NCBI GenBank assembly: GCA_963713955.1
Contig: OY970216.1
Location: forward strand, 570,252 to 634,251
Direction: 5' to 3'
DNA length: 64,000 nt
DNA from: an uncultured bacterium
Lineage (GTDB): Bacteria; Patescibacteriota; Minisyncoccia; UBA6257; GWB1-50-10
Below are positions 16,885 through 64,000 of this stretch, piece by piece. Below the pieces are notes generated by a model. The model was given only the letters and a program-made list of their open reading frames with translations. It did not search any database and was not told the DNA's origin. The position numbers and the translations under genes are program-made. Position 1 is the first letter of the stretch. Every line of letters begins with the position of its first letter.

Positions 16885-17784
16885 ATGAGATTGGAATGGA
16901 GTGAAATGCTTGTGATTGCGGCTATTAGAGAGCTTCATAGGACTGGAGTAAGGATAAATTCCAATTACATCCAGGAACACTACAGGAGTTTGTACAATGC
17001 TGCAGTGTGGCGTTTCGGTAGTTGGGGCGACGCAGTTGAGGCGAGCGGATACAGTTATGCAAAGATTCTCGCACTCAAGCTACTTCGCCATCCGAAATGG
17101 AGTAAACAAATTGTAATCTCGAGAATAAGGGAACTCCATGAATCCGGTGAAAAGCTGAACTCGAATTATATCCAGACACACCACCAATCTCTCTACGGAG
17201 CTGCTATTAGATACTTCGGGAGTTGGGGGAAGGCCGTTAAAGCCGCTGGGTACGATTATGGTTCGGTCCGGGTTCGGAAACCTTTTCGTTCTTGGACGAA
17301 GGACAAAATTGTGAGTGCCATTAAGACCAGGTACCGGAAAGGATTGCCAATCAACACAATGGCAATCTACTCACAGGATCGCGGTCTTTATAGCGCGGTC
17401 AGACGTCATTTTGGGAAAGACGGTATGAAGAAAGCTCAAAAAAAAGCCGGCTTCAATCCGCGAGATTTAGATCCCAAGAGAATATGGACTTCTAAGAAGG
17501 TGTTGCGGGAAATAAGGAGATTGAAAAAACTTCATGTCCCGCTCTACCACTTTTATCTTCTGAATCACGGTTACCAAAGCTTGACCTACGCCGGAGTAAG
17601 GCTCTTCGGCAGCTGGAGAAAGACAATCAAAGCCGCCAGACTTGATTACGATCGTATTAAAGCGGTCAGGAATCATTTCTGGAATAAGGGGCGAGTGATT
17701 GTAGAGATCAGACGTCTTGCCAGAAAAGGTGAGCGCCTGAGTTCGAAACACATCCACCTTACTGTGATGGATAGGTTTCTTTAG
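16885..17784 (+). CDS. Tandem-repeat protein (about 5 degenerate repeats of roughly 62 aa); C-terminus replaced by IS sequence
   Basis: The repeat consensus is W[ST]Kxx[IV][IV]xxIRELHxxGxx[IL]NSNYIQxHxxSLYxAA[IV]RxFGSWxxAVxAAGY, and resembles homing-endonuclease-associated helical repeats. The last 7 codons lie inside IS copy 1. Confidence 0.5.
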   Translation: MRLEWSEMLVIAAIRELHRTGVRINSNYIQEHYRSLYNAAVWRFGSWGDAVEASGYSYAKILALKLLRHPKWSKQIVISRIRELHESGEKLNSNYIQTHHQSLYGAAIRYFGSWGKAVKAAGYDYGSVRVRKPFRSWTKDKIVSAIKTRYRKGLPINTMAIYSQDRGLYSAVRRHFGKDGMKKAQKKAGFNPRDLDPKRIWTSKKVLREIRRLKKLHVPLYHFYLLNHGYQSLTYAGVRLFGSWRKTIKAARLDYDRIKAVRNHFWNKGRVIVEIRRLARKGERLSSKHIHLTVMDRFL

Positions 17785-17824
17785 ACAGTCACTCGACAAG
17801 TTTTCTCGTCGTTTTTTCATTCTC

Positions 17825-18607
17825 TCACACTGCTATCTTCTCTGCAAACACCGAAGGCGGCATCCTGAGAGCGGAGTGGATTCTTGTATGGTTGTACTCC
17901 CAAAGCGTTCGGTAGATCTCCGCCACAAGTTCCCCTAAGGATCTGAACCGATTAGGATCGCCAAGATCCATTTTGAATTTTCCGTAGAAAGATTCTTGGT
18001 ATCCGTTCTCCCACGGCGATCCGGGGCGTGAGCGGGAGATGGTGATGCCGTAGCGCTCAAGCATAGCGATGAACGCCTTCGCTTCGTATTCCCTCCCGTT
18101 GTCAGAATGGAAGATCACGGGTCGCGGGCAATGGAAGAGCGCGTTCGCCAGAGTTTGGATGGTGAGCGTCGATCCCTTCCGGGTCGCCACATGAACGCCC
18201 ATCAGTTGCCTCGTAAACAGGTTAAGGATCGTTGATACGTACAGCTTCTTCCCGTGAAAGACAAGCTCCGTGAAATCCGTCGCCCAGACATGGTTCGCAT
18301 ATGATGGCATAATGCCGAGGAGGAGGTTCGGGAAGTGCCGTTCCGCCTTGGATTTCCTGTATTTTCTCCCATGCCTGCGGTAGGGCTTGATGCCGTAAAT
18401 CCGCATGACCCGTTGCGCTCTCGGTCTGCCGATGCCGAGCGCAATCGCCAGTCGGCGTGAGCCGTATGAGGGATGCTCGTGAAGCACCTCCTCCGTCCGG
18501 ACCTTTAATGCCCAATCCTTCTTGTCCTGCGTTGCGACGTAATAGAGCGATGAGCGCGAGACACCCATGGCGCGAGCCAGGGCGGATACGTTCCTTTCCC
18601 TGCTCAA
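17825..18607 (-). CDS. IS3-family transposase OrfB (rve integrase core, DDE)
   Basis: The rve-core segments WATDFTE, FHSDNGREY and SPWENGYQESF are present. Confidence 0.85.
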   Translation of the reverse strand: MSRERNVSALARAMGVSRSSLYYVATQDKKDWALKVRTEEVLHEHPSYGSRRLAIALGIGRPRAQRVMRIYGIKPYRRHGRKYRKSKAERHFPNLLLGIMPSYANHVWATDFTELVFHGKKLYVSTILNLFTRQLMGVHVATRKGSTLTIQTLANALFHCPRPVIFHSDNGREYEAKAFIAMLERYGITISRSRPGSPWENGYQESFYGKFKMDLGDPNRFRSLGELVAEIYRTLWEYNHTRIHSALRMPPSVFAEKIAV

Positions 18608-18867
18608 TTCTTTTTTTGGGTCTGGGACAGCTTGATCGTGAGTTCACCGATCACTTCGAAGAGTTCCTGATTCTGTTTCTTTAGGCGATTGATTTCTCCC
18701 CAGGAGGGAGCGCTCGTGGCACCGGCGCCGAGCCATCCATACACGGTTGTCTCGTGGACGCCTGCATCTTTTGCCGCTTCTGCGACGGAGACGCCTTCTT
18801 CCTTCACGCGGCGGACAATCTCCGCTTTTACCTCTTTCGCTACCCGATATCCTTTTTTGTTAGCCAT
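18604..18867 (-). CDS. IS3-family transposase OrfA (HTH)
   Basis: An 87-aa protein with a helix-turn-helix and leucine zipper. It ends at the A_AAA_AAG slippery site. Confidence 0.8.
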   Translation of the reverse strand: MANKKGYRVAKEVKAEIVRRVKEEGVSVAEAAKDAGVHETTVYGWLGAGATSAPSWGEINRLKKQNQELFEVIGELTIKLSQTQKKN

Positions 18868-18921
18868 GACACAATGGTAATTTGTTCCGACCTTTGTGTC
18901 TAAATTTTCCTATCCGGAACA

Positions 18922-19134
18922 GTCGCCGAAGACCCAAACTATCTTCAGCTCTATCTGAGAAAGGTCTCAAAAGATCAAATTGGAATCGGTCTCACCTACC
19001 AGATACCGGAGGGCAAGGATGTCAAAACAGCTCAGGGGGAGTATTTTGACAAAGTCTCCGACTATCTTAAGCGGAACTTCGGGAACGATCTTGTGGGCTG
19101 GGATATGGCGGCCACCGTTCAACTCGTCAAATAA
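18922..19134 (+). pseudogene. 3' remnant (70 codons) of a gene truncated by IS copy 1
   Basis: The frame is open from the IS boundary to the TAA at 19132-19134 (...GWDMAATVQLVK*). It has no start codon. Confidence 0.4.
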
Positions 19135-22567: not shown

Positions 22568-22859
22568 TTACAATCTCTTGAACAACGCCAGTTTTTCGCC
22601 CTGGAACGTATCGAAACCCAGACCCTTAAAGAGATGGGGACGACCGGTGATCGCAAAAATCTCCTTGATGTTTCTATTCTTCGCAAGGGCAAGACATTTG
22701 CGTACCAACTGAGTTCCTATCCCGGACCCATGGTATTCTTTGTTCACCGCCAAGCTTCTAACTTCAGCAATTCTCTTGGAATAGATATCAAGGGCGCAGC
22801 AACCGATAATCTTGCCGTCTTCAACCGCAACAAAGAAACGGTTTATGGACGGAATCTCG
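22568..22859 (-). pseudogene. GNAT N-acetyltransferase fragment (ArgA-like C-terminal domain), 5'-truncated by IS copy 2
   Basis: The acetyl-CoA motif is present (LAVNKEYHGSGIGTQLV). The ORF's 5' end runs into the IS terminus at 22860. Confidence 0.55.
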
Positions 22860-22913
22860 TGTTCCGGATAGGAAAATTTAGACACAAAGGTCGGAACAAA
22901 TTACCATTGTGTC

Positions 22914-23177
22914 ATGGCTAACAAAAAAGGATATCGGGTAGCGAAAGAGGTAAAAGCGGAGATTGTCCGCCGCGTGAAGGAAGAAGGCGTCTCCGTCGCA
23001 GAAGCGGCAAAAGATGCAGGCGTCCACGAGACAACCGTGTATGGATGGCTCGGCGCCGGTGCCACGAGCGCTCCCTCCTGGGGAGAAATCAATCGCCTAA
23101 AGAAACAGAATCAGGAACTCTTCGAAGTGATCGGTGAACTCACGATCAAGCTGTCCCAGACCCAAAAAAAGAATTGA
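22914..23177 (+). CDS. IS3-family transposase OrfA
   Basis: Identical to the OrfA at 18604-18867. Confidence 0.8.
   Translation: MANKKGYRVAKEVKAEIVRRVKEEGVSVAEAAKDAGVHETTVYGWLGAGATSAPSWGEINRLKKQNQELFEVIGELTIKLSQTQKKN
23165..23171 (+). promoter_or_regulatory. Programmed -1 ribosomal frameshift heptamer A_AAA_AAG at the OrfA/OrfB overlap
   Basis: The sequence cccAAAAAAAGaattga places the slippery site 2 codons before the OrfA stop. OrfB is in the -1 frame. Confidence 0.6.
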
Positions 23178-23956
23178 GCAGGGAAAGGAACGTATCCGCC
23201 CTGGCTCGCGCCATGGGTGTCTCGCGCTCATCGCTCTATTACGTCGCAACGCAGGACAAGAAGGATTGGGCATTAAAGGTCCGGACGGAGGAGGTGCTTC
23301 ACGAGCATCCCTCATACGGCTCACGCCGACTGGCGATTGCGCTCGGCATCGGCAGACCGAGAGCGCAACGGGTCATGCGGATTTACGGCATCAAGCCCTA
23401 CCGCAGGCATGGGAGAAAATACAGGAAATCCAAGGCGGAACGGCACTTCCCGAACCTCCTCCTCGGCATTATGCCATCATATGCGAACCATGTCTGGGCG
23501 ACGGATTTCACGGAGCTTGTCTTTCACGGGAAGAAGCTGTACGTATCAACGATCCTTAACCTGTTTACGAGGCAACTGATGGGCGTTCATGTGGCGACCC
23601 GGAAGGGATCGACGCTCACCATCCAAACTCTGGCGAACGCGCTCTTCCATTGCCCGCGACCCGTGATCTTCCATTCTGACAACGGGAGGGAATACGAAGC
23701 GAAGGCGTTCATCGCTATGCTTGAGCGCTACGGCATCACCATCTCCCGCTCACGCCCCGGATCGCCGTGGGAGAACGGATACCAAGAATCTTTCTACGGA
23801 AAATTCAAAATGGATCTTGGCGATCCTAATCGGTTCAGATCCTTAGGGGAACTTGTGGCGGAGATCTACCGAACGCTTTGGGAGTACAACCATACAAGAA
23901 TCCACTCCGCTCTCAGGATGCCGCCTTCGGTGTTTGCAGAGAAGATAGCAGTGTGA
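23174..23956 (+). CDS. IS3-family transposase OrfB (rve)
   Basis: Identical to the OrfB at 17825-18607. Confidence 0.85.
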   Translation: MSRERNVSALARAMGVSRSSLYYVATQDKKDWALKVRTEEVLHEHPSYGSRRLAIALGIGRPRAQRVMRIYGIKPYRRHGRKYRKSKAERHFPNLLLGIMPSYANHVWATDFTELVFHGKKLYVSTILNLFTRQLMGVHVATRKGSTLTIQTLANALFHCPRPVIFHSDNGREYEAKAFIAMLERYGITISRSRPGSPWENGYQESFYGKFKMDLGDPNRFRSLGELVAEIYRTLWEYNHTRIHSALRMPPSVFAEKIAV

Positions 23957-24018
23957 GAGAATGAAAAAACGACGAGAAAACTTGTCGAGTGACTGTCTAA
24001 AGAAACCTATCCATCACA

Positions 24019-33448: not shown

Positions 33449-33602
33449 TGGTAAGTTTGTAGCGGTTGTCCCACGGCACGCGAAATCTGCCGCAACGCTT
33501 TTGGTTTGCGCCGCCGATGAAATCCACGTTGGTAATCTTAGTGAACTTGGACCGATAGATCCTCAAATTAATGAATGTAAAGACCTGTAAAGACCCCCAA
33601 AG

Positions 33603-34412
33603 TTAAGACACTTTTTCGACAAGTTTCTGGTAGCGATTCGAGAACAGTGCAGGCGGCATCCTGAGGGCGGAGTGGATTCTCCGGTGGTTGTAGTCCCAGA
33701 CCAGGCGATGGATCTCGTAGACCAGCTCTCCCAGCGATTTGAACCTCTCCGGATCGCCCAGATCCACCTTGAACTGGGAGTAGAAGGACTCCTGGTAGCC
33801 GTTCTCCCATGGCGATGACTTCCTCGATCTCGATATCCTGACGCCGAGGTTCAAAAGAGCTCCGGTGAAGATCCTTGAGCCATACTCCCTTCCGTTGTCC
33901 GAGTGGAAGATGTTGGGTCTCGGATGATGTTCCGCCGCGGAGAAGAGTGCCTGGAGGACCAGAGGCACCGAGTGGGTATTCATCACGGCCCAGCCCACGA
34001 TCTCCCTCGCAAACAAATCCATCACGGTGGCGAGATACAGGAACTTCCCTTGGTACGGGATGTACGTGAAGTCCGCCACCCAGATATCGTTCAATCCTTT
34101 GGGGAAGTTCTTCTGAAGGAGATTGGGATACAGGATACTCGAGAAGCCCGTTTTCCTTGGCCTTCTGCCCCTTCTCCGATATGCCTTCATCCCGAAGAGC
34201 CTCATCACCCGTTGGGCTCTTTTTTTGTTGATCTTGAGCTCCAAAGCCACTCTTCTGAAGCCGTATGAAGGATGGTCTCTCAAGACTGATATGATCCTTT
34301 CCTTGAGCGACCAATCCTTGGGCGATTGTTTCGAGACATAGTAGAGGGAGGCGCGGGAGAGGCCGAGTTCACGGGCAAGTTCCCACTTCGTCTTCTTCTG
34401 CTTTTTGATCAA
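33603..34412 (-). CDS. IS3-family transposase OrfB (rve)
   Basis: The rve-core segments WVADFTY, FHSDNGREY and SPWENGYQESF are present. Confidence 0.8.
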   Translation of the reverse strand: MIKKQKKTKWELARELGLSRASLYYVSKQSPKDWSLKERIISVLRDHPSYGFRRVALELKINKKRAQRVMRLFGMKAYRRRGRRPRKTGFSSILYPNLLQKNFPKGLNDIWVADFTYIPYQGKFLYLATVMDLFAREIVGWAVMNTHSVPLVLQALFSAAEHHPRPNIFHSDNGREYGSRIFTGALLNLGVRISRSRKSSPWENGYQESFYSQFKVDLGDPERFKSLGELVYEIHRLVWDYNHRRIHSALRMPPALFSNRYQKLVEKVS

Positions 34413-57497: not shown

Positions 57498-57988
57498 TCA
57501 ATACTCTTTCAAAAGAACGGATTCCCCATTTTCGTCTCGTGTAAATTGCTTTGTCTTTAAAAATTTGATTTTAATTTCTTCTCCTTCATTGAAAAACCCT
57601 ACGATATTATCCTTACTGGCTTCGTTATAAAAACTCAGTATCCGATCGGCACTATTGAAAAGCTCCCATTGGTTGTCTATTCTCCCCGGCACGAACACAT
57701 TGTTTAAATCCTCCCCTTTACGTATCGTGTATATCAGGGTGCCTTTGTTGCTGTAGAGTTTGATTTCATCTATTGCTTGTATTTCATAAAGCTCCGAAAT
57801 CCATTTCCGTTTTACTACAAAATCCCTCCCCTGATTTTTAATTATGGCGTCAACCAAGAAATCGAAGCAGAAAACACAAATCTCCCTTGTCCAATTTAGT
57901 TCACCCCATTCAATATCATGATTTAGTACATATTTCCAGTCTCTAGCTTTGTTAATGCCAACTTTCGCAGTCAACTCCTCAAAGCGAT
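57498..57988 (-). pseudogene. 3' fragment of an AT-rich gene; its N-terminal part was replaced by IS sequence
   Basis: The ORF track entry 57498-58190 reads through the IS fragment. Only about 163 codons are native sequence, and they have no recognisable motifs. Confidence 0.4.
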
Positions 57989-58150
57989 TGTAAAGACCCC
58001 CAAAGTTAAGACACTTTTTCGACAAGTTTCTGGTAGCGATTCGAGAACAGTGCAGGCGGCATCCTGAGGGCGGAGTGGATTCTCCGGTGGTTGTAGTCCC
58101 AGACCAGGCGATGGATCTCGTAGACCAGCTCTCCCAGCGATTTGAACCTC
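57989..58150 (-). mobile_element. 162-bp terminal fragment of the second IS3-family element, interrupted by IS copy 3
   Basis: The fragment is 100% identical to 33586-33747. It begins with the TGTAAAGACCCCC terminal inverted repeat. Confidence 0.8.
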
Positions 58151-58204
58151 TGTTCCGGATAGGAAAATTTAGACACAAAGGTCGGAACAAATTACCATTG
58201 TGTC

Positions 58205-58468
58205 ATGGCTAACAAAAAAGGATATCGGGTAGCGAAAGAGGTAAAAGCGGAGATTGTCCGCCGCGTGAAGGAAGAAGGCGTCTCCGTCGCAGAAGCGGCA
58301 AAAGATGCAGGCGTCCACGAGACAACCGTGTATGGATGGCTCGGCGCCGGTGCCACGAGCGCTCCCTCCTGGGGAGAAATCAATCGCCTAAAGAAACAGA
58401 ATCAGGAACTCTTCGAAGTGATCGGTGAACTCACGATCAAGCTGTCCCAGACCCAAAAAAAGAATTGA
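58205..58468 (+). CDS. IS3-family transposase OrfA
   Basis: Identical to the other OrfA copies. Confidence 0.8.
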   Translation: MANKKGYRVAKEVKAEIVRRVKEEGVSVAEAAKDAGVHETTVYGWLGAGATSAPSWGEINRLKKQNQELFEVIGELTIKLSQTQKKN

Positions 58469-59247
58469 GCAGGGAAAGGAACGTATCCGCCCTGGCTCGC
58501 GCCATGGGTGTCTCGCGCTCATCGCTCTATTACGTCGCAACGCAGGACAAGAAGGATTGGGCATTAAAGGTCCGGACGGAGGAGGTGCTTCACGAGCATC
58601 CCTCATACGGCTCACGCCGACTGGCGATTGCGCTCGGCATCGGCAGACCGAGAGCGCAACGGGTCATGCGGATTTACGGCATCAAGCCCTACCGCAGGCA
58701 TGGGAGAAAATACAGGAAATCCAAGGCGGAACGGCACTTCCCGAACCTCCTCCTCGGCATTATGCCATCATATGCGAACCATGTCTGGGCGACGGATTTC
58801 ACGGAGCTTGTCTTTCACGGGAAGAAGCTGTACGTATCAACGATCCTTAACCTGTTTACGAGGCAACTGATGGGCGTTCATGTGGCGACCCGGAAGGGAT
58901 CGACGCTCACCATCCAAACTCTGGCGAACGCGCTCTTCCATTGCCCGCGACCCGTGATCTTCCATTCTGACAACGGGAGGGAATACGAAGCGAAGGCGTT
59001 CATCGCTATGCTTGAGCGCTACGGCATCACCATCTCCCGCTCACGCCCCGGATCGCCGTGGGAGAACGGATACCAAGAATCTTTCTACGGAAAATTCAAA
59101 ATGGATCTTGGCGATCCTAATCGGTTCAGATCCTTAGGGGAACTTGTGGCGGAGATCTACCGAACGCTTTGGGAGTACAACCATACAAGAATCCACTCCG
59201 CTCTCAGGATGCCGCCTTCGGTGTTTGCAGAGAAGATAGCAGTGTGA
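58465..59247 (+). CDS. IS3-family transposase OrfB (rve)
   Basis: Identical to the other OrfB copies. Confidence 0.85.
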   Translation: MSRERNVSALARAMGVSRSSLYYVATQDKKDWALKVRTEEVLHEHPSYGSRRLAIALGIGRPRAQRVMRIYGIKPYRRHGRKYRKSKAERHFPNLLLGIMPSYANHVWATDFTELVFHGKKLYVSTILNLFTRQLMGVHVATRKGSTLTIQTLANALFHCPRPVIFHSDNGREYEAKAFIAMLERYGITISRSRPGSPWENGYQESFYGKFKMDLGDPNRFRSLGELVAEIYRTLWEYNHTRIHSALRMPPSVFAEKIAV

Positions 59248-59297
59248 GAGAATGAAAAAACGACGAGAAAACTTGTCGAGTGACTGTCTAAAGAAAC

Positions 59298-60389
59298 CTA
59301 TCCATCACAGGGCGTAATCTTCAATCTCGGACCATCAGGTACTTCCTTATCGATGAGATCCCTCAATTCTTCGCCAGTCAAAGCGGAACCTGCGATATTG
59401 CCGCGTACGGTGAACAGTTTCCACACATCCCTCAACTTCGCCACCATAGCCATACCTCTTTCACGGCTAATTCCCTCAATGTCGAAATTTTTACCAAGGT
59501 AACGATGAAGCGTTGCCGGTGAAATTCTCTCTTCGCGGACCATTCTTGCTAAAAATTCCACCAGTTTTCGAGCATCGAGGTGATAACCAGGGTAGCGGTA
59601 AATATACAAATCTCTCCCTCTTCGATCCAAAGTTGGGATAGAATCGCCGAAGTCAAGGATTTTTGAGGCGGGAGTGAAAGCAATGGGATACTTATTGCCG
59701 TCAACCTCGACAGTCAAAGTGCTCTCAATGAACCTATCGATGATCACTCCGGTAATGTATCTGGCCTTCGTATTCCTCAAGTCTTCCAACATGTGACAAC
59801 TTATAAGCCCATAGCAAGCGGCGCTATGAGCGTGATGAGACGAAAGACTTTTAGACGAGGGTTCTTCTTCGTTGAGATAGAAAGGATCAATGCCGCACAT
59901 ACGCGAGCATCCAGGGAACACTTCGGTATAAGATTCACCGAGAGCACATAAGTATTCCTGAACGATGTCGGAGACTAGTCTGCCACCGTACTTGAATACA
60001 TCGAGTTCGCCAGCACCAGTTGGTACGCCGTCAGACGGGACAAGACGAATGCTAAACCATTCTTCTACGGGGGTTCCGTCGGCCGTTGAGTACATAACTT
60101 GAGCGGCGTAAATTGCCGACTTCACATCGAATTTATCAAGCGGCGGCCGGTCACCATAGATGTAATAGGACCCTCGCATGGAAAGCAAGAGTTCATAGAG
60201 AACATCATCTATCCATCGCTCGTCGTGAATACTTTTTATGCGGTATACGGAATATGTTTCACCGGGGGTTTGCCACACAGAAACAGGAGGAGGAAGTTCC
60301 TTGAGAAGCAATCTTATTTCGCGGGCATTAAGTTCCCGTGAAATGCTCTCTAGGGGATTTACTTCATTATCCAAGAATTTTATTTTCAT
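59298..60389 (-). CDS. Hypothetical 363-aa protein; third gene of the E1-like/nitroreductase operon
   Basis: A 9-nt gap separates it from the upstream gene. It has several Cys and His residues (CALGESY, GCSRMCG, SHHAHSAACYGLISCH). I recognise no family, and no clear YcaO motifs. Confidence 0.5.
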   Translation of the reverse strand: MKIKFLDNEVNPLESISRELNAREIRLLLKELPPPVSVWQTPGETYSVYRIKSIHDERWIDDVLYELLLSMRGSYYIYGDRPPLDKFDVKSAIYAAQVMYSTADGTPVEEWFSIRLVPSDGVPTGAGELDVFKYGGRLVSDIVQEYLCALGESYTEVFPGCSRMCGIDPFYLNEEEPSSKSLSSHHAHSAACYGLISCHMLEDLRNTKARYITGVIIDRFIESTLTVEVDGNKYPIAFTPASKILDFGDSIPTLDRRGRDLYIYRYPGYHLDARKLVEFLARMVREERISPATLHRYLGKNFDIEGISRERGMAMVAKLRDVWKLFTVRGNIAGSALTGEELRDLIDKEVPDGPRLKITPCDG

Positions 60390-60398
60390 GGCTGCCTC

Positions 60399-61499
60399 CT
60401 AAGATTCTTCAGACGAAATTTCGACCACTTCGTCAACAGGCACACGAGGTGCATGAGGTGGTCGTGCTGTTCGCCCTTCCAAGGAGTACCCAAGTCGAAA
60501 GATGACTGTCGGTCTCCCCTGTTTCCAGAGTCGCATTTTAAGAGCAGTGTTCAGAATTGGTTCTTCTACCATAGCAGCATGCACCGAAAGATCCAGTCCC
60601 TCGAGTTCCGCTAGGAGCGCACATCGCTCGAGCGATCTTCCAGCAGAAACCCAAGAGGAAGGTTTATCCTCTGATGCACCAATAATTCCAATGAGGGGCG
60701 CTGAGAGAAATGTTTCTCGATCGCCGGCAGGAAAGGCGTCCGCAAGGTACGTGTCAAATTGACCGTCACCTAAAAGTGCGCGGTGAACTTTCTCCGCCAA
60801 CTCGTCGTCGAAGTCAAACGTCGCGCCGGGCATACATCTTCCTTCGAGAGTATCGTTTGGGCGAAGGAAATTACCCAACTCGTTCCGGAATTTCGTTAAG
60901 GCAACAACGGCGTTATCGGCAGCATACTGTGCTTCCGCCATCATGCCGCGCGTAAACCGGTCGGTTACGGCACTGAATGAACAACCAAATCGGTTCACGA
61001 TTTTCTTCATCTCCTCAACGAGGTTTTGCGGTACCTTTCTCCCTTCGTCAAATCTCTTGCGGTTCATGCGTCTTTGTTTCATCGCATTCATAATTTGAAC
61101 ATCGGAACCACCTTTCATTGTGGGATCACCAACCTGCACCGTTACAAAGGGTAAGGGGTAACCTTCCGTGCAAAGAGGATATTTCACAGAGCACCAAGAG
61201 CCATAGTGATCAGCCGCCGTGAGAAAATTTTCAAGAGTGCAACCGATACTTATAGCCGCTTGGCGACCCGTTTTGTCAGATGCGGGCAACACGAAGCGCG
61301 AATCAAGACAGATGTCGATGGTGTTCGTCGCCGGACGGACGACGAAACTCCATGGCTGAGTGTTATGACTACTCGCTGCAAGAATCGCCCACGACACAAG
61401 GTGTTTCAGAAACCGCTCCTTCGAAACCGCTTCGGTCAACGGTTCTATCTGCCAAGCGGCATAGTTGGGAGTTCTGGGTGTTGCATCTTCACGAAACAT
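60399..61499 (-). CDS. Nitroreductase-superfamily protein, two-domain (SagB/McbC-like FMN oxidoreductase fold)
   Basis: The N-terminus reads AILAASSHNTQPWSFVV. The second half contains LSAPLIGIIGAS and VHAAMVEE. It overlaps the upstream gene by 11 nt. Confidence 0.6.
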   Translation of the reverse strand: MFREDATPRTPNYAAWQIEPLTEAVSKERFLKHLVSWAILAASSHNTQPWSFVVRPATNTIDICLDSRFVLPASDKTGRQAAISIGCTLENFLTAADHYGSWCSVKYPLCTEGYPLPFVTVQVGDPTMKGGSDVQIMNAMKQRRMNRKRFDEGRKVPQNLVEEMKKIVNRFGCSFSAVTDRFTRGMMAEAQYAADNAVVALTKFRNELGNFLRPNDTLEGRCMPGATFDFDDELAEKVHRALLGDGQFDTYLADAFPAGDRETFLSAPLIGIIGASEDKPSSWVSAGRSLERCALLAELEGLDLSVHAAMVEEPILNTALKMRLWKQGRPTVIFRLGYSLEGRTARPPHAPRVPVDEVVEISSEES

Positions 61500-62724
61500 G
61501 GCTAACCTCCTTCGCTATCGCACTTTGGTCGAAAAATGTTCTTTCCTGCAACTCAAATCCAAGCAATGCTAACCCAATGTGCCGGGCTAACTCCGCCCCA
61601 GCTTTTGTAGCAGTAGAACCTAATTGAGGTAACCCTTTGAACATAGGTTGAATCTCTCGGACCACGGGAGGCCGGTCGCGTAATACAGGAGAGAGCCCTG
61701 GAAGCATCAACTGCTTGAATTCCGGCACGCTCAAACAATCTGTACCGACGATAGCAAGAAAGAGTTCCATAAAATCTTCCTGCTTATGCGTTCTGTGCCA
61801 GCGATCCAGTTTCTCGAACAATTTATCGTCCGATATACTGTTCCCCATGAGCGGAGGTGAATTATCAAGATCAAACCGCTGGACATCGATCTGAAAACAC
61901 TGCCCGAGGTCAGAAACCATAAAAACCGGAATCCTGAAACGACGAGCTACCTCACGGATATGAATTTTCATATCAAGATCGTCCATTTCCTCGACAATGA
62001 TCGTCGCGGGAGGCTCATTGCGAGCAGGGTTACCACCCACAAAGTCCTCTATGTTGTCGATATGGACTCCTTCGTTATAAACTGAGAATGTCATAAAGGG
62101 ATCCATTGATTGCAGTTCAAATGCAGTCGCTTCAGCTTTATTCAAGCCCATTTGCCGATACGTCAAGGGAAGACGATTTGCATTCGAAACGTGAAACGTT
62201 TTCGCATCAGCCAGTTTCATACCACAGGGATGCAGGTCTTCAAAAAGCACGCGAGCGACGTTCCCACCGAGACTACACCCGGCAATTGCGACCACGGGCC
62301 TTTCGAACTTCTCCCGTACATCTCTCCACGACAGTCTCATCTCAGGATCCTGATAGAGCGTCTTATTTCTGACGTAGAACGAGAGTTGATGCCAGCGCGG
62401 TGGCGCATATCTCACCACATCTCCGTTCCGTGGATACCATACAGAGACCCCGTATGATACGTCGTCTCTCTTGGATTTGAACAATTCATATTCCTTCACG
62501 AAATCGTCTTTGAATTCGGATCCAGGAACCAAGTCTTCCAAAAGAGACTCCATGGCAAAAGGTGCCATATCGTAGTAATGAGAAGGAGAAACCTTTATTG
62601 TCTCTTCTCTTCCGTCACTGTCCTTGAGATGAATAGACAATCCAGTAGATGGACTGCCAGAAACACTATCCGGCTCCAAGATGACCGGTGCTCCGTCGTA
62701 CGCAGCGTACAGTCTTGTTTCCAT
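61489..62724 (-). CDS. ThiF/MoeB-family E1-like adenylyltransferase-fold protein with an about 150-aa N-terminal extension
   Basis: The Rossmann motif VVAIAGCSLGGNVARVL is present. The D-x-D-x-V-x-x-SNLNRQ equivalent reads KLADAKTFHVSNANRLPL. GLNKAEATAFELQSMDP and IPVFMVSDLG are also present. Confidence 0.65.
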   Translation of the reverse strand: METRLYAAYDGAPVILEPDSVSGSPSTGLSIHLKDSDGREETIKVSPSHYYDMAPFAMESLLEDLVPGSEFKDDFVKEYELFKSKRDDVSYGVSVWYPRNGDVVRYAPPRWHQLSFYVRNKTLYQDPEMRLSWRDVREKFERPVVAIAGCSLGGNVARVLFEDLHPCGMKLADAKTFHVSNANRLPLTYRQMGLNKAEATAFELQSMDPFMTFSVYNEGVHIDNIEDFVGGNPARNEPPATIIVEEMDDLDMKIHIREVARRFRIPVFMVSDLGQCFQIDVQRFDLDNSPPLMGNSISDDKLFEKLDRWHRTHKQEDFMELFLAIVGTDCLSVPEFKQLMLPGLSPVLRDRPPVVREIQPMFKGLPQLGSTATKAGAELARHIGLALLGFELQERTFFDQSAIAKEVSHVS

Positions 62725-62874
62725 AACTAACCTTCCTTTCTTTGTCTTGTGTGGAATATGTTTATGAATTATGAAATTGTAAACAAGGGTCTCATCCCAC
62801 TACTATAATTAGCGTGACACGCGGAACCGCGCTTGTCAAAACAAGCATCAATCAGAAAATGGTATAATTAACAA

Positions 62875-63285
62875 ATGCCGGACCAAACAATCATTTCACT
62901 GAACGGGGCGACGATTCTCATTGCGGAGGATGACGCACTCGTCTCAAAGCTGTACGAAAAGAAAATCGAACTCTCAGGAGGAAAACCGATCGTCGCGGTC
63001 GACGGGGAGGACACACTCAAAAAACTTGAGAGTACGAAGATCGATCTCATTCTCCTCGACATCAAGATGCCCAAAATGAACGGCTATGAAGTACTCCGGA
63101 GAGTAAAAAACAACCCGGCAACGAAGGACATCCCAGTCATCGTACTCACGAGCCTCGAAACCCATCCGGAATATCTCGAGAAAACAACGGGCATCAAAGT
63201 CGACGAATATCTCATGAAAGCCGATACGTTACCCGACGAAGTCATACAGAAAATATCCGAACACCTCGGCGAGAAAAAAGGATAA
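62875..63285 (+). CDS. Stand-alone response-regulator receiver domain (CheY-like)
   Basis: The acidic pocket reads IAEDD, the phospho-acceptor DLILLDIKMP, then VIVLTS and a conserved Lys. No output domain is present. Confidence 0.8.
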   Translation: MPDQTIISLNGATILIAEDDALVSKLYEKKIELSGGKPIVAVDGEDTLKKLESTKIDLILLDIKMPKMNGYEVLRRVKNNPATKDIPVIVLTSLETHPEYLEKTTGIKVDEYLMKADTLPDEVIQKISEHLGEKKG

Positions 63286-63483
63286 ATGAGGAAAGGTCGG
63301 GGTACGCTTTTTTTCAAATCAATGCCAAAAGCAAAAAAGAAAAAAACGACTAAAAAGACAAGGAAAGCCACGTCAAAGGCGGTATTGAAAAGCACGGCGT
63401 GCGATTGCGCCCTCGGCGTCTGCAGATGCAAGACCTGCGTCTGTACCTGCACCAACGGAAAGTGCAAGTGCGTCTGCAAGTAA
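63286..63483 (+). CDS. Small cationic Cys-rich peptide (65 aa): a Lys-rich N-terminus followed by 11 Cys in CxC repeats
   Basis: It is translationally coupled to the receiver gene (TAAATG). The C-terminus reads CDCALGVCRCKTCVCTCTNGKCKCVCK. Confidence 0.5.
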   Translation: MRKGRGTLFFKSMPKAKKKKTTKKTRKATSKAVLKSTACDCALGVCRCKTCVCTCTNGKCKCVCK

Positions 63484-63501: not shown

Positions 63502-64000
63502 ATGCAAAAAACCAGACTGGCGGTCGCGGGCGACGAAGGTTCCTTTTCCGAGGAAGCGGGGCTCGCCTACACCCAAAGAACCGGGCTCAAAACGAAGCTT
63601 GTTTTCGCGACTGACATGGAGGGCGTGCTTTCATTAGTCGAAAGGGGCGAGGTCAACTTGGGAATATTCCCGGTCGTGAACTCACGAGGCGGTCTCGTGC
63701 AAACCGCTTTCGAAGCAATGGGCCGCCATTTATTCGCAATCGTCGGCGAGGTCTGGCTCGACGTGCACCAATGCCTCATGACTCTGCCGACGATCAAGAA
63801 ATCGCAAATAAAGAGGATAGCGAGCCATCCCCAGGCGATTTCCCAATGCGAACGGTACCTCGCCAAAGAATTTAAAAACATGCCGCTCGAAGAGCGGGAA
63901 GACACGGCCAAGGCGGCGAGCGACTTGGCCTCCGGGCTTTTATCGAAAAGCACCGCTGTTATAGCCCCAGCCAAGTCTGCTCGCATCTACGGACTGAAAA
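63502..64000 (+). CDS. pheA: Prephenate dehydratase, 5' part; continues beyond the window
   Basis: The N-terminus reads RLAVAGDEGSFSEEA with TLPTIKKSQIKRIASHPQAISQC, matching the PDT domain. The frame is open to the window end. Confidence 0.7.
   Translation, partial: MQKTRLAVAGDEGSFSEEAGLAYTQRTGLKTKLVFATDMEGVLSLVERGEVNLGIFPVVNSRGGLVQTAFEAMGRHLFAIVGEVWLDVHQCLMTLPTIKKSQIKRIASHPQAISQCERYLAKEFKNMPLEEREDTAKAASDLASGLLSKSTAVIAPAKSARIYGLK

Follow-up and report, generated by a model that had tools for sequence, protein, structure and literature searches.

The years 2021 to 2025 saw the enzymology of the bacterial N-acyl oxazolones established; the authors of that work call the physiological role of these compounds a major unresolved question and suspect signaling. 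Rv1355c is TrzS, which together with the acyltransferase TrzA makes N-acyl tryptazolones; its ThiF-like domain carries out an ATP-dependent cyclization and its flavin oxidase domain an O2-dependent desaturation (PMC12856293). OxzA and OxzB of Pseudoalteromonas rubra perform the same oxazolone chemistry (bioRxiv 10.1101/2020.06.11.147165), as do TyzA, TyzB, and TyzC of Mycobacterium tuberculosis by means of three separate proteins (PMC10404671). A trio with an N-acyl amino acid synthase, a ThiF, and a nitroreductase has also been put forward for N-acyl dehydrotyrosines, in Planctomycetota and in further phyla (PMC12479983), and a 2025 review names OxzB as the only ThiF-like natural-product enzyme known outside the pathways of peptides made on ribosomes and modified after translation (RiPPs). 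Here we analyze a three-gene cassette, genes 1 to 3, in a 64,000-nt stretch of contig OY970216.1 (positions 570,252 to 634,251; hereafter the window) from an uncultured bacterium of the Patescibacteriota. The original prediction, made from the DNA letters alone, took this cassette for a peptide- or protein-modification system, either RiPP-like or of a conjugation type. We consider it probable that the cassette is instead a split, three-gene version of an N-acyl oxazolone or N-acyl dehydro-amino-acid lipid pathway, comparable to OxzAB, TyzACB, and TrzAS.

How does the locus compare with these systems? Like the cassette with its predicted enzymes, TyzACB (Rv2336, Rv2338c, and Rv2337c) encodes the acyltransferase, the ThiF-like cyclase, and the ~370-aa Acg-like flavin oxidase in separate genes, and TyzA resembles gene 3 in being an unannotated "hypothetical" protein, with FeeM and an acyl-homoserine lactone (AHL) synthase as its closest structures (PMC10404671). 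The two differ in gene order and orientation, tyzA and tyzBC being divergent there and the three genes sharing a single operon here, and in that the paper describes no adjoining histidine kinase or receiver (PMC10404671). The host of TyzACB belongs to the Actinomycetota, while those of the cassette are uncultured bacteria, including metagenome-assembled genomes (MAGs) labelled as Saccharibacteria. TrzAS (Rv1356c and Rv1355c) and OxzAB share with the cassette the ThiF and nitroreductase functions, and each has an acyltransferase gene adjacent, where the cassette has a predicted one. Their synthetase is fused, a state also seen in one cassette relative (L028), whereas the window encodes the two catalytic domains as separate proteins, and the protein predicted for this role in the cassette, unlike theirs, is not of the PF13444/NasY type. 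Finally, trzAS lies beside genes for cyclic di-GMP turnover (PMC12856293), while the cassette is linked to a histidine kinase with a seven-transmembrane (7TM) sensor region.

Table 1. The cassette and adjoining features, in window coordinates
Feature	Position	Strand	Description
Gene 1	61489-62724	-	411 aa; candidate ThiF-like ATP-dependent cyclase (TyzB / TrzS N-half type)
Gene 2	60399-61499	-	366 aa; candidate Acg-type flavin-dependent oxidase (TyzC / TrzS C-half type), predicted desaturase
Gene 3	59298-60389	-	363 aa; family without annotation; predicted N-acyltransferase; native sequence up to 59311
IS3-family insertion sequence	58150-59310	+	orfA 58205-58468, orfB 58465-59247; HTH_Tnp_1 and rve
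Divergent intergenic region between cassette and receiver gene	62725-62874	.	150 bp
Receiver-only (CheY-like) response regulator	62875-63285	+	Response_reg 3.3e-19, without output domain
Orphan Lys-/Cys-rich open reading frame	63286-63483	+	65 aa; reality as gene uncertain

Three proteins and a predicted biosynthetic route

The coordinates of the three minus-strand open reading frames (ORFs) hold as predicted, with an 11-nt overlap between genes 1 and 2 and a 9-nt gap between genes 2 and 3, and the motifs AGCSLGGN, SNANR (noted earlier as SNxNR), and SHNTQPW are all found in the translations. The adenylation fold ascribed to gene 1 is indeed intact: the protein matches Pfam ThiF at 6.3e-8, and residues G149, S151, and G153 of the glycine-rich nucleotide-binding loop together with D173, N181, N183, R184, K196, and D248 are at least 90% conserved among 27 family members. 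Its top NCBIfam match is the Rv1355c family (1.9e-32, residues 93-299, aligned to the N-terminal part of the 722-aa model); the classical ThiF model reaches 1.3e-9 only, and the ThiF/MoeB equivalog models stay far under their cut-offs. The Rv1355c score of 112 bits lies far under the cut-off of 476 bits, but this was set for the fused 722-aa protein. Gene 1 is full length, carries an N-terminal extension of ~135 aa, and is 89% identical to its ortholog at L010, the closest relative of this locus. The kinship with MccB, PaaA, and the docking proteins of thiazole/oxazole-modified microcins (TOMMs) suggested earlier finds no support, the best family being that of Rv1355c/TrzS, a small-molecule oxazolone synthetase. 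On these matches, gene 1 most likely encodes a ThiF-like cyclase whose adenylation motif is intact and which belongs to the ThiF branch of TrzS, TyzB, and OxzB.

Gene 2 had been described as a two-domain nitroreductase-fold protein of the SagB/McbC type. The fold stands (Pfam Nitroreductase, 8.1e-7), while the type has to be replaced: residues 34-359 match the NCBIfam model of the Acg family FMN-binding oxidoreductases (NF047509) at 1.9e-53, and the sole clear relative in the PDB is the Acg protein 2ymv (7e-6), the structural reference also for the oxidase domain of TrzS (PMC12856293). A further match covers the C-terminal half of the Rv1355c model (5.9e-14). Between them, the two proteins cover the N- and C-terminal parts of that model and so amount to a split Rv1355c-type ThiF-nitroreductase fusion. 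Family alignment shows N46, Q48, P49, W50, R79, R143, R147, and R335 of gene 2 to be conserved, and the protein is full length and 88% identical to its L010 counterpart. Its sequence would place it among the nitroreductase-superfamily flavin oxidases, in the Acg-like class of about 340-370 aa, adjoining a ThiF-like gene.

Gene 3 was said to match no family, and at the level of sequence this is correct: Pfam, NCBIfam, PADLOC, and the PDB return no match, whether it is searched as a single sequence or as a profile. Word-indexed searching recovers only 8-9 relatives, even with a profile of 140 sequences, and an exhaustive profile search was needed; clustered at 50% identity, the family it yields has at least 257 representatives, and for 191 of these the match is below 1e-30. 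A structure model built from 140 sequences has a pLDDT of 96.4 (an earlier AF2 model from 8 sequences, with a pLDDT of 62.8, was discarded). By fold, the structures nearest to this model are synthases that make N-acyl amino acids or AHLs, and they rank ahead of generic GNATs. FeeM (2g0b), an N-acyl amino acid synthase, comes first with a score of 11.7 over 161 aligned residues, followed among the AHL synthases by LasI (rank 2, 10.8), TofI (rank 3, 10.2), RpaI (rank 5, 9.7), and MesI (rank 7, 9.5). The predicted structure thereby gives a place to a protein that the original prediction had left unplaceable; the fold, and only the fold, points to an N-acyltransferase. From about residue 215, gene 3 has an extra C-terminal domain of ~150 residues that we could not place. 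Near-invariant in the family are R72, Y78, G79, D85, D88, K90, E110, W111, R115, S162, and R163. One 460-aa family member (P0073; L049, 4262-5644) carries a fragment of Acetyltransf_5 (2.3e-7, residues 29-90), Pfam's N-acyl amino acid synthase family of GNATs, just before its gene 3-type domain. Possible sources of this fragment are a partial duplication and a fusion made by the gene caller; it might also be a faint sequence bridge to the canonical N-acyl amino acid synthases.

What reaction sequence would these proteins carry out? By homology with the characterized enzymes, gene 3 would N-acylate a free amino acid, with acyl-coenzyme A or acyl-acyl carrier protein as donor. Gene 1, with ATP, would then adenylate the carboxylate of the N-acyl amino acid, and attack by the amide oxygen would close the oxazolone ring. 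Gene 2, as an Acg-type oxidase with flavin mononucleotide (FMN), would put in the alpha,beta double bond. The chemistry of all three steps is thus predicted from the described homologs.

Conservation of the cassette and its kinase partner

Using Pfam listings and purpose-built hidden Markov models, we compared 37 distinct loci that carry a relative of gene 3, at identities from 81% down to ~25%. A ThiF-like gene is present at every locus with a readable flank, and an Acg-type oxidase gene at all of these save one. The gene order varies: ThiF-oxidase-gene 3, ThiF-gene 3-oxidase, and gene 3-ThiF-oxidase all occur. Fusions are found as well, joining the gene 3 family to ThiF (P0110; L020, 7001-9388), ThiF to the oxidase (L028, 7020-9398), and dihydroorotate dehydrogenase (DHODH) to the gene 3 family (P0141; L048, 7001-9118). 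As Rosetta-stone evidence, the three fusions argue that the three functions belong to one pathway, and some variants may, to judge by the DHODH fusion, use a second redox step that depends on FMN. The view that the three genes form one co-conserved cassette is well supported by this neighborhood survey, in which they are clustered or fused across the 37 loci. For several of the related loci, the source is a MAG that bears the label Candidatus Saccharibacteria.

The survey also brought out a partner that the original prediction, which had recognized the receiver gene as a neighbor, had missed. A polytopic 7TM histidine kinase directly adjoins the cassette in 26 of the 27 loci with a readable flank, the sole kinase-less locus being the window itself; at L020 only a transposase gene lies between cassette and kinase. 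The N-terminal, polytopic membrane region of these kinases gives weak to clear matches to Pfam HisKA_7TM and is followed by HisKA and HATPase_c, and by a simple scan for hydropathy their first 300 aa hold 8-9 hydrophobic segments. A receiver-only regulator adjoins the cassette in roughly two-thirds of the related loci, and that of the window is 68% identical to its neighbor at L010. At L017 and L018 (10365-13188 in both) and at L003 (11453-14461), a second histidine kinase and extra receivers directly follow the 7TM kinase, which suggests a multi-step phosphorelay over a simple two-component pair.

The gene pairs LuxM-LuxN and CqsA-CqsS of Vibrio each couple an autoinducer synthase to a membrane sensor kinase. 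The related loci show a likeness to these pairs, at the level of the genes alone, in that a putative small-lipid synthase locus adjoins a polytopic kinase without a large extracytoplasmic domain. They differ in chemistry, since formation of an oxazolone ring with ATP and desaturation by a flavin enzyme would be unrelated to that of the Vibrio synthases; moreover, the window cassette has an insertion sequence (IS) in the kinase position, and HisKA_7TM has no known ligand. In the literature searched, HisKA_7TM appears only in domain censuses that give no ligand, the oxazolone papers make no mention of a histidine kinase, and no paper links oxazolones to Patescibacteria or Saccharibacteria. Judged from linkage, the two-component system most plausibly has a connection with the lipid product or with its precursor, as ligand or as regulated output. 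Going further, we propose tentatively, and at somewhat less than even confidence, that the module of gene 3 family protein, ThiF-like cyclase, flavin oxidase, HisKA_7TM kinase, and CheY-like receiver is a system for producing and perceiving a lipid signal. That the kinase has an autoinducer-like ligand in the N-acyl oxazolone, or in the N-acyl amino acid from which it would be made, is likewise possible rather than probable, linkage alone being what suggests it.

As predicted, cassette and receiver gene are separated by a divergent spacer of 150 bp. One of the two small palindromes reported there can be made out by eye, short and imperfect, at ~62814-62839; the second was not seen, and a repeat finder run on the spacer reported none. 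The spacer also holds sigma-70-like matches on the plus strand (62780-62809, 10 of 12 positions) and the minus strand (62783-62755, 9 of 12), both of them consensus matches only. An Rfam scan of the window gave a tRNA as its sole match. On the far side of the receiver gene and the small Cys-rich ORF, a gene for prephenate dehydratase, listed for L001 as PDT, begins at 63503 on the plus strand and runs off the window end at 64000. The known relatives of the cassette use Tyr, Phe, or Trp, and it may be coincidence that an aromatic amino acid gene stands beside it.

Alternative explanations

Which observations speak against an oxazolone pathway? At the distant locus L047 (7001-11161), the order is gene 3-ThiF-7TM kinase and no oxidase gene lies within 7 kb; desaturation is therefore not universal, and this variant may make a saturated product. 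The Acg score of gene 2 is 182 bits and, as this falls under the 199-bit cut-off of NCBIfam, gene 2 is not a curated member of the Acg family. In gene 1, an extension of ~90 residues falls outside the part that aligns with Rv1355c and is uncharacterized. Gene 3 was set beside TyzA, TrzA, and OxzA by their published descriptions, and at the level of sequence nothing ties it to established N-acyl amino acid or AHL synthases: scans of 30 family members, one by one, with Pfam and NCBIfam gave no match; Foldseek of the predicted structure against the PDB found nothing below E = 0.2, with GNATs and LasI heading the list; and an hhalign comparison of the family profile with LasI (sequence verified with 1ro5) was not significant. 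The clipped gene 3 of the window, described below, may be inactive.

Does the kinase perceive the product at all? The oxazolone-type chemistry could be as proposed and the kinase sense some other membrane or stress cue and simply control the cassette, or a different process, the lipid being a membrane- or stress-protective metabolite and not a signal. The published oxazolone loci are tied to stress phenotypes, with no signaling phenotype so far, a receiver-only regulator leaves the output undefined, and the additional kinases and receivers at some loci suggest a larger relay. This is the main rival to a signaling role, and we regard it as less likely than not. The kinase stays with the cassette while gene 3 identities fall to ~25% and gene order is shuffled, which is the pattern of synthase-receptor pairs; its sensor region is almost wholly membrane-embedded and would fit a lipophilic ligand; and a receiver without a DNA-binding domain would be odd for a simple transcriptional switch of the operon. 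Gene 3 might, on the other hand, be an acyl- or aminoacyl-transferase of another specificity and the product a heterocycle other than the known aryl oxazolones, with an N-acylated non-proteinogenic amino acid or a nucleotide- or cofactor-linked amide as example substrates. The novelty of the gene 3 sequence, its extra C-terminal domain and own set of near-invariant residues, the DHODH fusion, and the locus devoid of an oxidase gene would all agree with this. It is doubtful all the same, and we give it a small share of our belief, for the closest folds are specifically those of N-acyl amino acid and AHL synthases, above generic GNATs, and the ThiF-like protein and the oxidase match oxazolone enzymes.

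The peptide-modification scheme turned on the 65-aa ORF behind the receiver gene: an E1-like enzyme and a nitroreductase-fold enzyme would act on this peptide, rich in Cys and Thr, to give a product of the azole type. It is true that a nitroreductase-fold protein adjoins an E1-like protein extended at its N-terminus, and the cassette resembles TOMM and microcin B17 loci in pairing an E1-like protein with a nitroreductase-superfamily FMN oxidase of the kind that aromatizes or desaturates a heterocycle precursor. The ORF is coupled to the receiver gene as described, beginning on the base right after the stop codon of the regulator; an AGGA-like motif lies just upstream of its ATG, and it fills the gap between the receiver and prephenate dehydratase genes. 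Its last 27 residues are Cys-rich and contain Thr, the count being 10 Cys and 3 Thr and not 11 Cys. It is present in contigs of its own genome only and missing from all 36 other loci, a collection of 5.8 billion proteins holds no homolog, the gene callers did not call it, and it lies on the opposite strand from the cassette, past position 63263, where synteny with L010 stops. This ORF does not belong to the conserved components of the cassette system. Among the five proteins of the locus, Pfam and NCBIfam give no match to YcaO or SagB models at E <= 1, nor do such genes occur in the Pfam listings of the related neighborhoods. Unlike the TOMM systems, then, the cassette has no YcaO, no SagB signature, and no conserved precursor peptide, and its third protein has an N-acyltransferase fold; its oxidase is of the Acg type, and its ThiF-like protein is closest to a small-molecule oxazolone synthetase family. 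A RiPP-type cassette is accordingly very improbable. At L010, a 119-aa protein with a Cys-rich N-terminus (CRCPLCVGGKCTMCGEKGCPACPYC) and no Pfam match is encoded at 677-1036 on the plus strand, convergent with the receiver gene. It is not homologous to the window ORF, and it is curious that two unrelated Cys-rich products hold the same relative position.

Much the same applies to gene 1 as a classical E1 that adenylates the C-terminus of a sulfur-carrier, ubiquitin-like, or receiver protein in cofactor synthesis or conjugation. The ThiF fold with its intact adenylation motif, weak E1-E2 matches in PADLOC (3.5e-6), and the C-terminal Gly of the window receiver protein could be cited for it. 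This Gly is not conserved among the relatives, the ThiF/MoeB models score far below the Rv1355c model, and no ThiS, MoaD, E2, or JAB gene lies at this locus or in the surveyed related neighborhoods, so that we find a classical E1 scarcely credible. No surveyed homolog locus has a ThiS/MoaD or cofactor-pathway gene nearby, and the original prediction was right to set thiamine and molybdopterin metabolism aside and to see in gene 1 an enzyme that activates carboxylates in a specialized pathway. The form that it gave to this pathway, a RiPP/azole or protein-conjugation cassette, is essentially excluded by the tests made here. A split oxazolone-type pathway remains the probable explanation.

The insertion sequence and the fate of this copy

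Why is the window the only locus with a readable flank that has no kinase? The operon had been described as IS-flanked and as abutting the third IS copy of the window. The contact is real, but a single copy is involved and touches the 3' end only; what had escaped notice is that it clips gene 3. DNA homology to L010 runs uninterrupted from window position 63263 to 59311 (3,978 bp, 82.7% identity) and ends exactly where the IS begins. Because the IS extends 13 nt into the gene 3 ORF, the last residues of the protein, CDG, and the stop codon are IS sequence. At L010, gene 3 runs on for 21 further codons ("LGELEKSVEAILRVLHVIRV"), and the gene that comes next is that of the 7TM kinase. In the window, the IS has taken the place of these last 21 codons and sits where the relatives carry the kinase. 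Both a kinase homolog and the missing gene 3 tail were sought throughout the 64-kb window, including beside the other IS copies, and neither was found.

The IS3-family element is 1.16 kb long and present in three copies in the window, at 17762-18922 (minus strand), at 22852-24018 (plus strand), and beside gene 3 (plus strand). Since the copies are 99.8-100% identical, transposition in this genome appears to have been recently active. No clear target-site duplication was seen at the IS copies inspected. By the simplest reading, an IS-associated deletion or rearrangement took the kinase and clipped gene 3. With 21 codons of gene 3 lost and the kinase gone, the window copy is sensor-less and possibly impaired.

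To the left of this IS lies a 163-bp stretch (57989-58151) that is 100% identical to 33586-33748, a segment inside ORFs of ~250 aa (33568-34412). The stretch codes for the C-terminus of another IS3-type transposase, so that the third IS copy abuts a remnant of a second IS type. Between this remnant and a YchF GTPase gene, in the place expected for the kinase, stands a minus-strand ORF (57498-58025) of about 175-230 aa with a GC content of ~43% and no Pfam match.

The window copy is a decaying example, and its value lies mainly in providing an entry point to the family. What does the family add? Oxazolone chemistry is already known; what is new is a predicted acyltransferase family of novel sequence, together with a 7TM kinase partner that is close to obligatory. 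Because Pfam and NCBIfam do not recognize this family, annotation-based neighborhood surveys would miss such loci. From the kinase linkage comes a clue to the function of oxazolones, and with it the idea of oxazolone signaling becomes directly testable by experiment. If the proposed pairing of lipid and sensor is true, it would provide the first physiological role for oxazolones and the first ligand for the HisKA_7TM sensor domain, and it would define a signal system not recognized before in uncultured bacteria, including those represented by Saccharibacteria-labelled MAGs.

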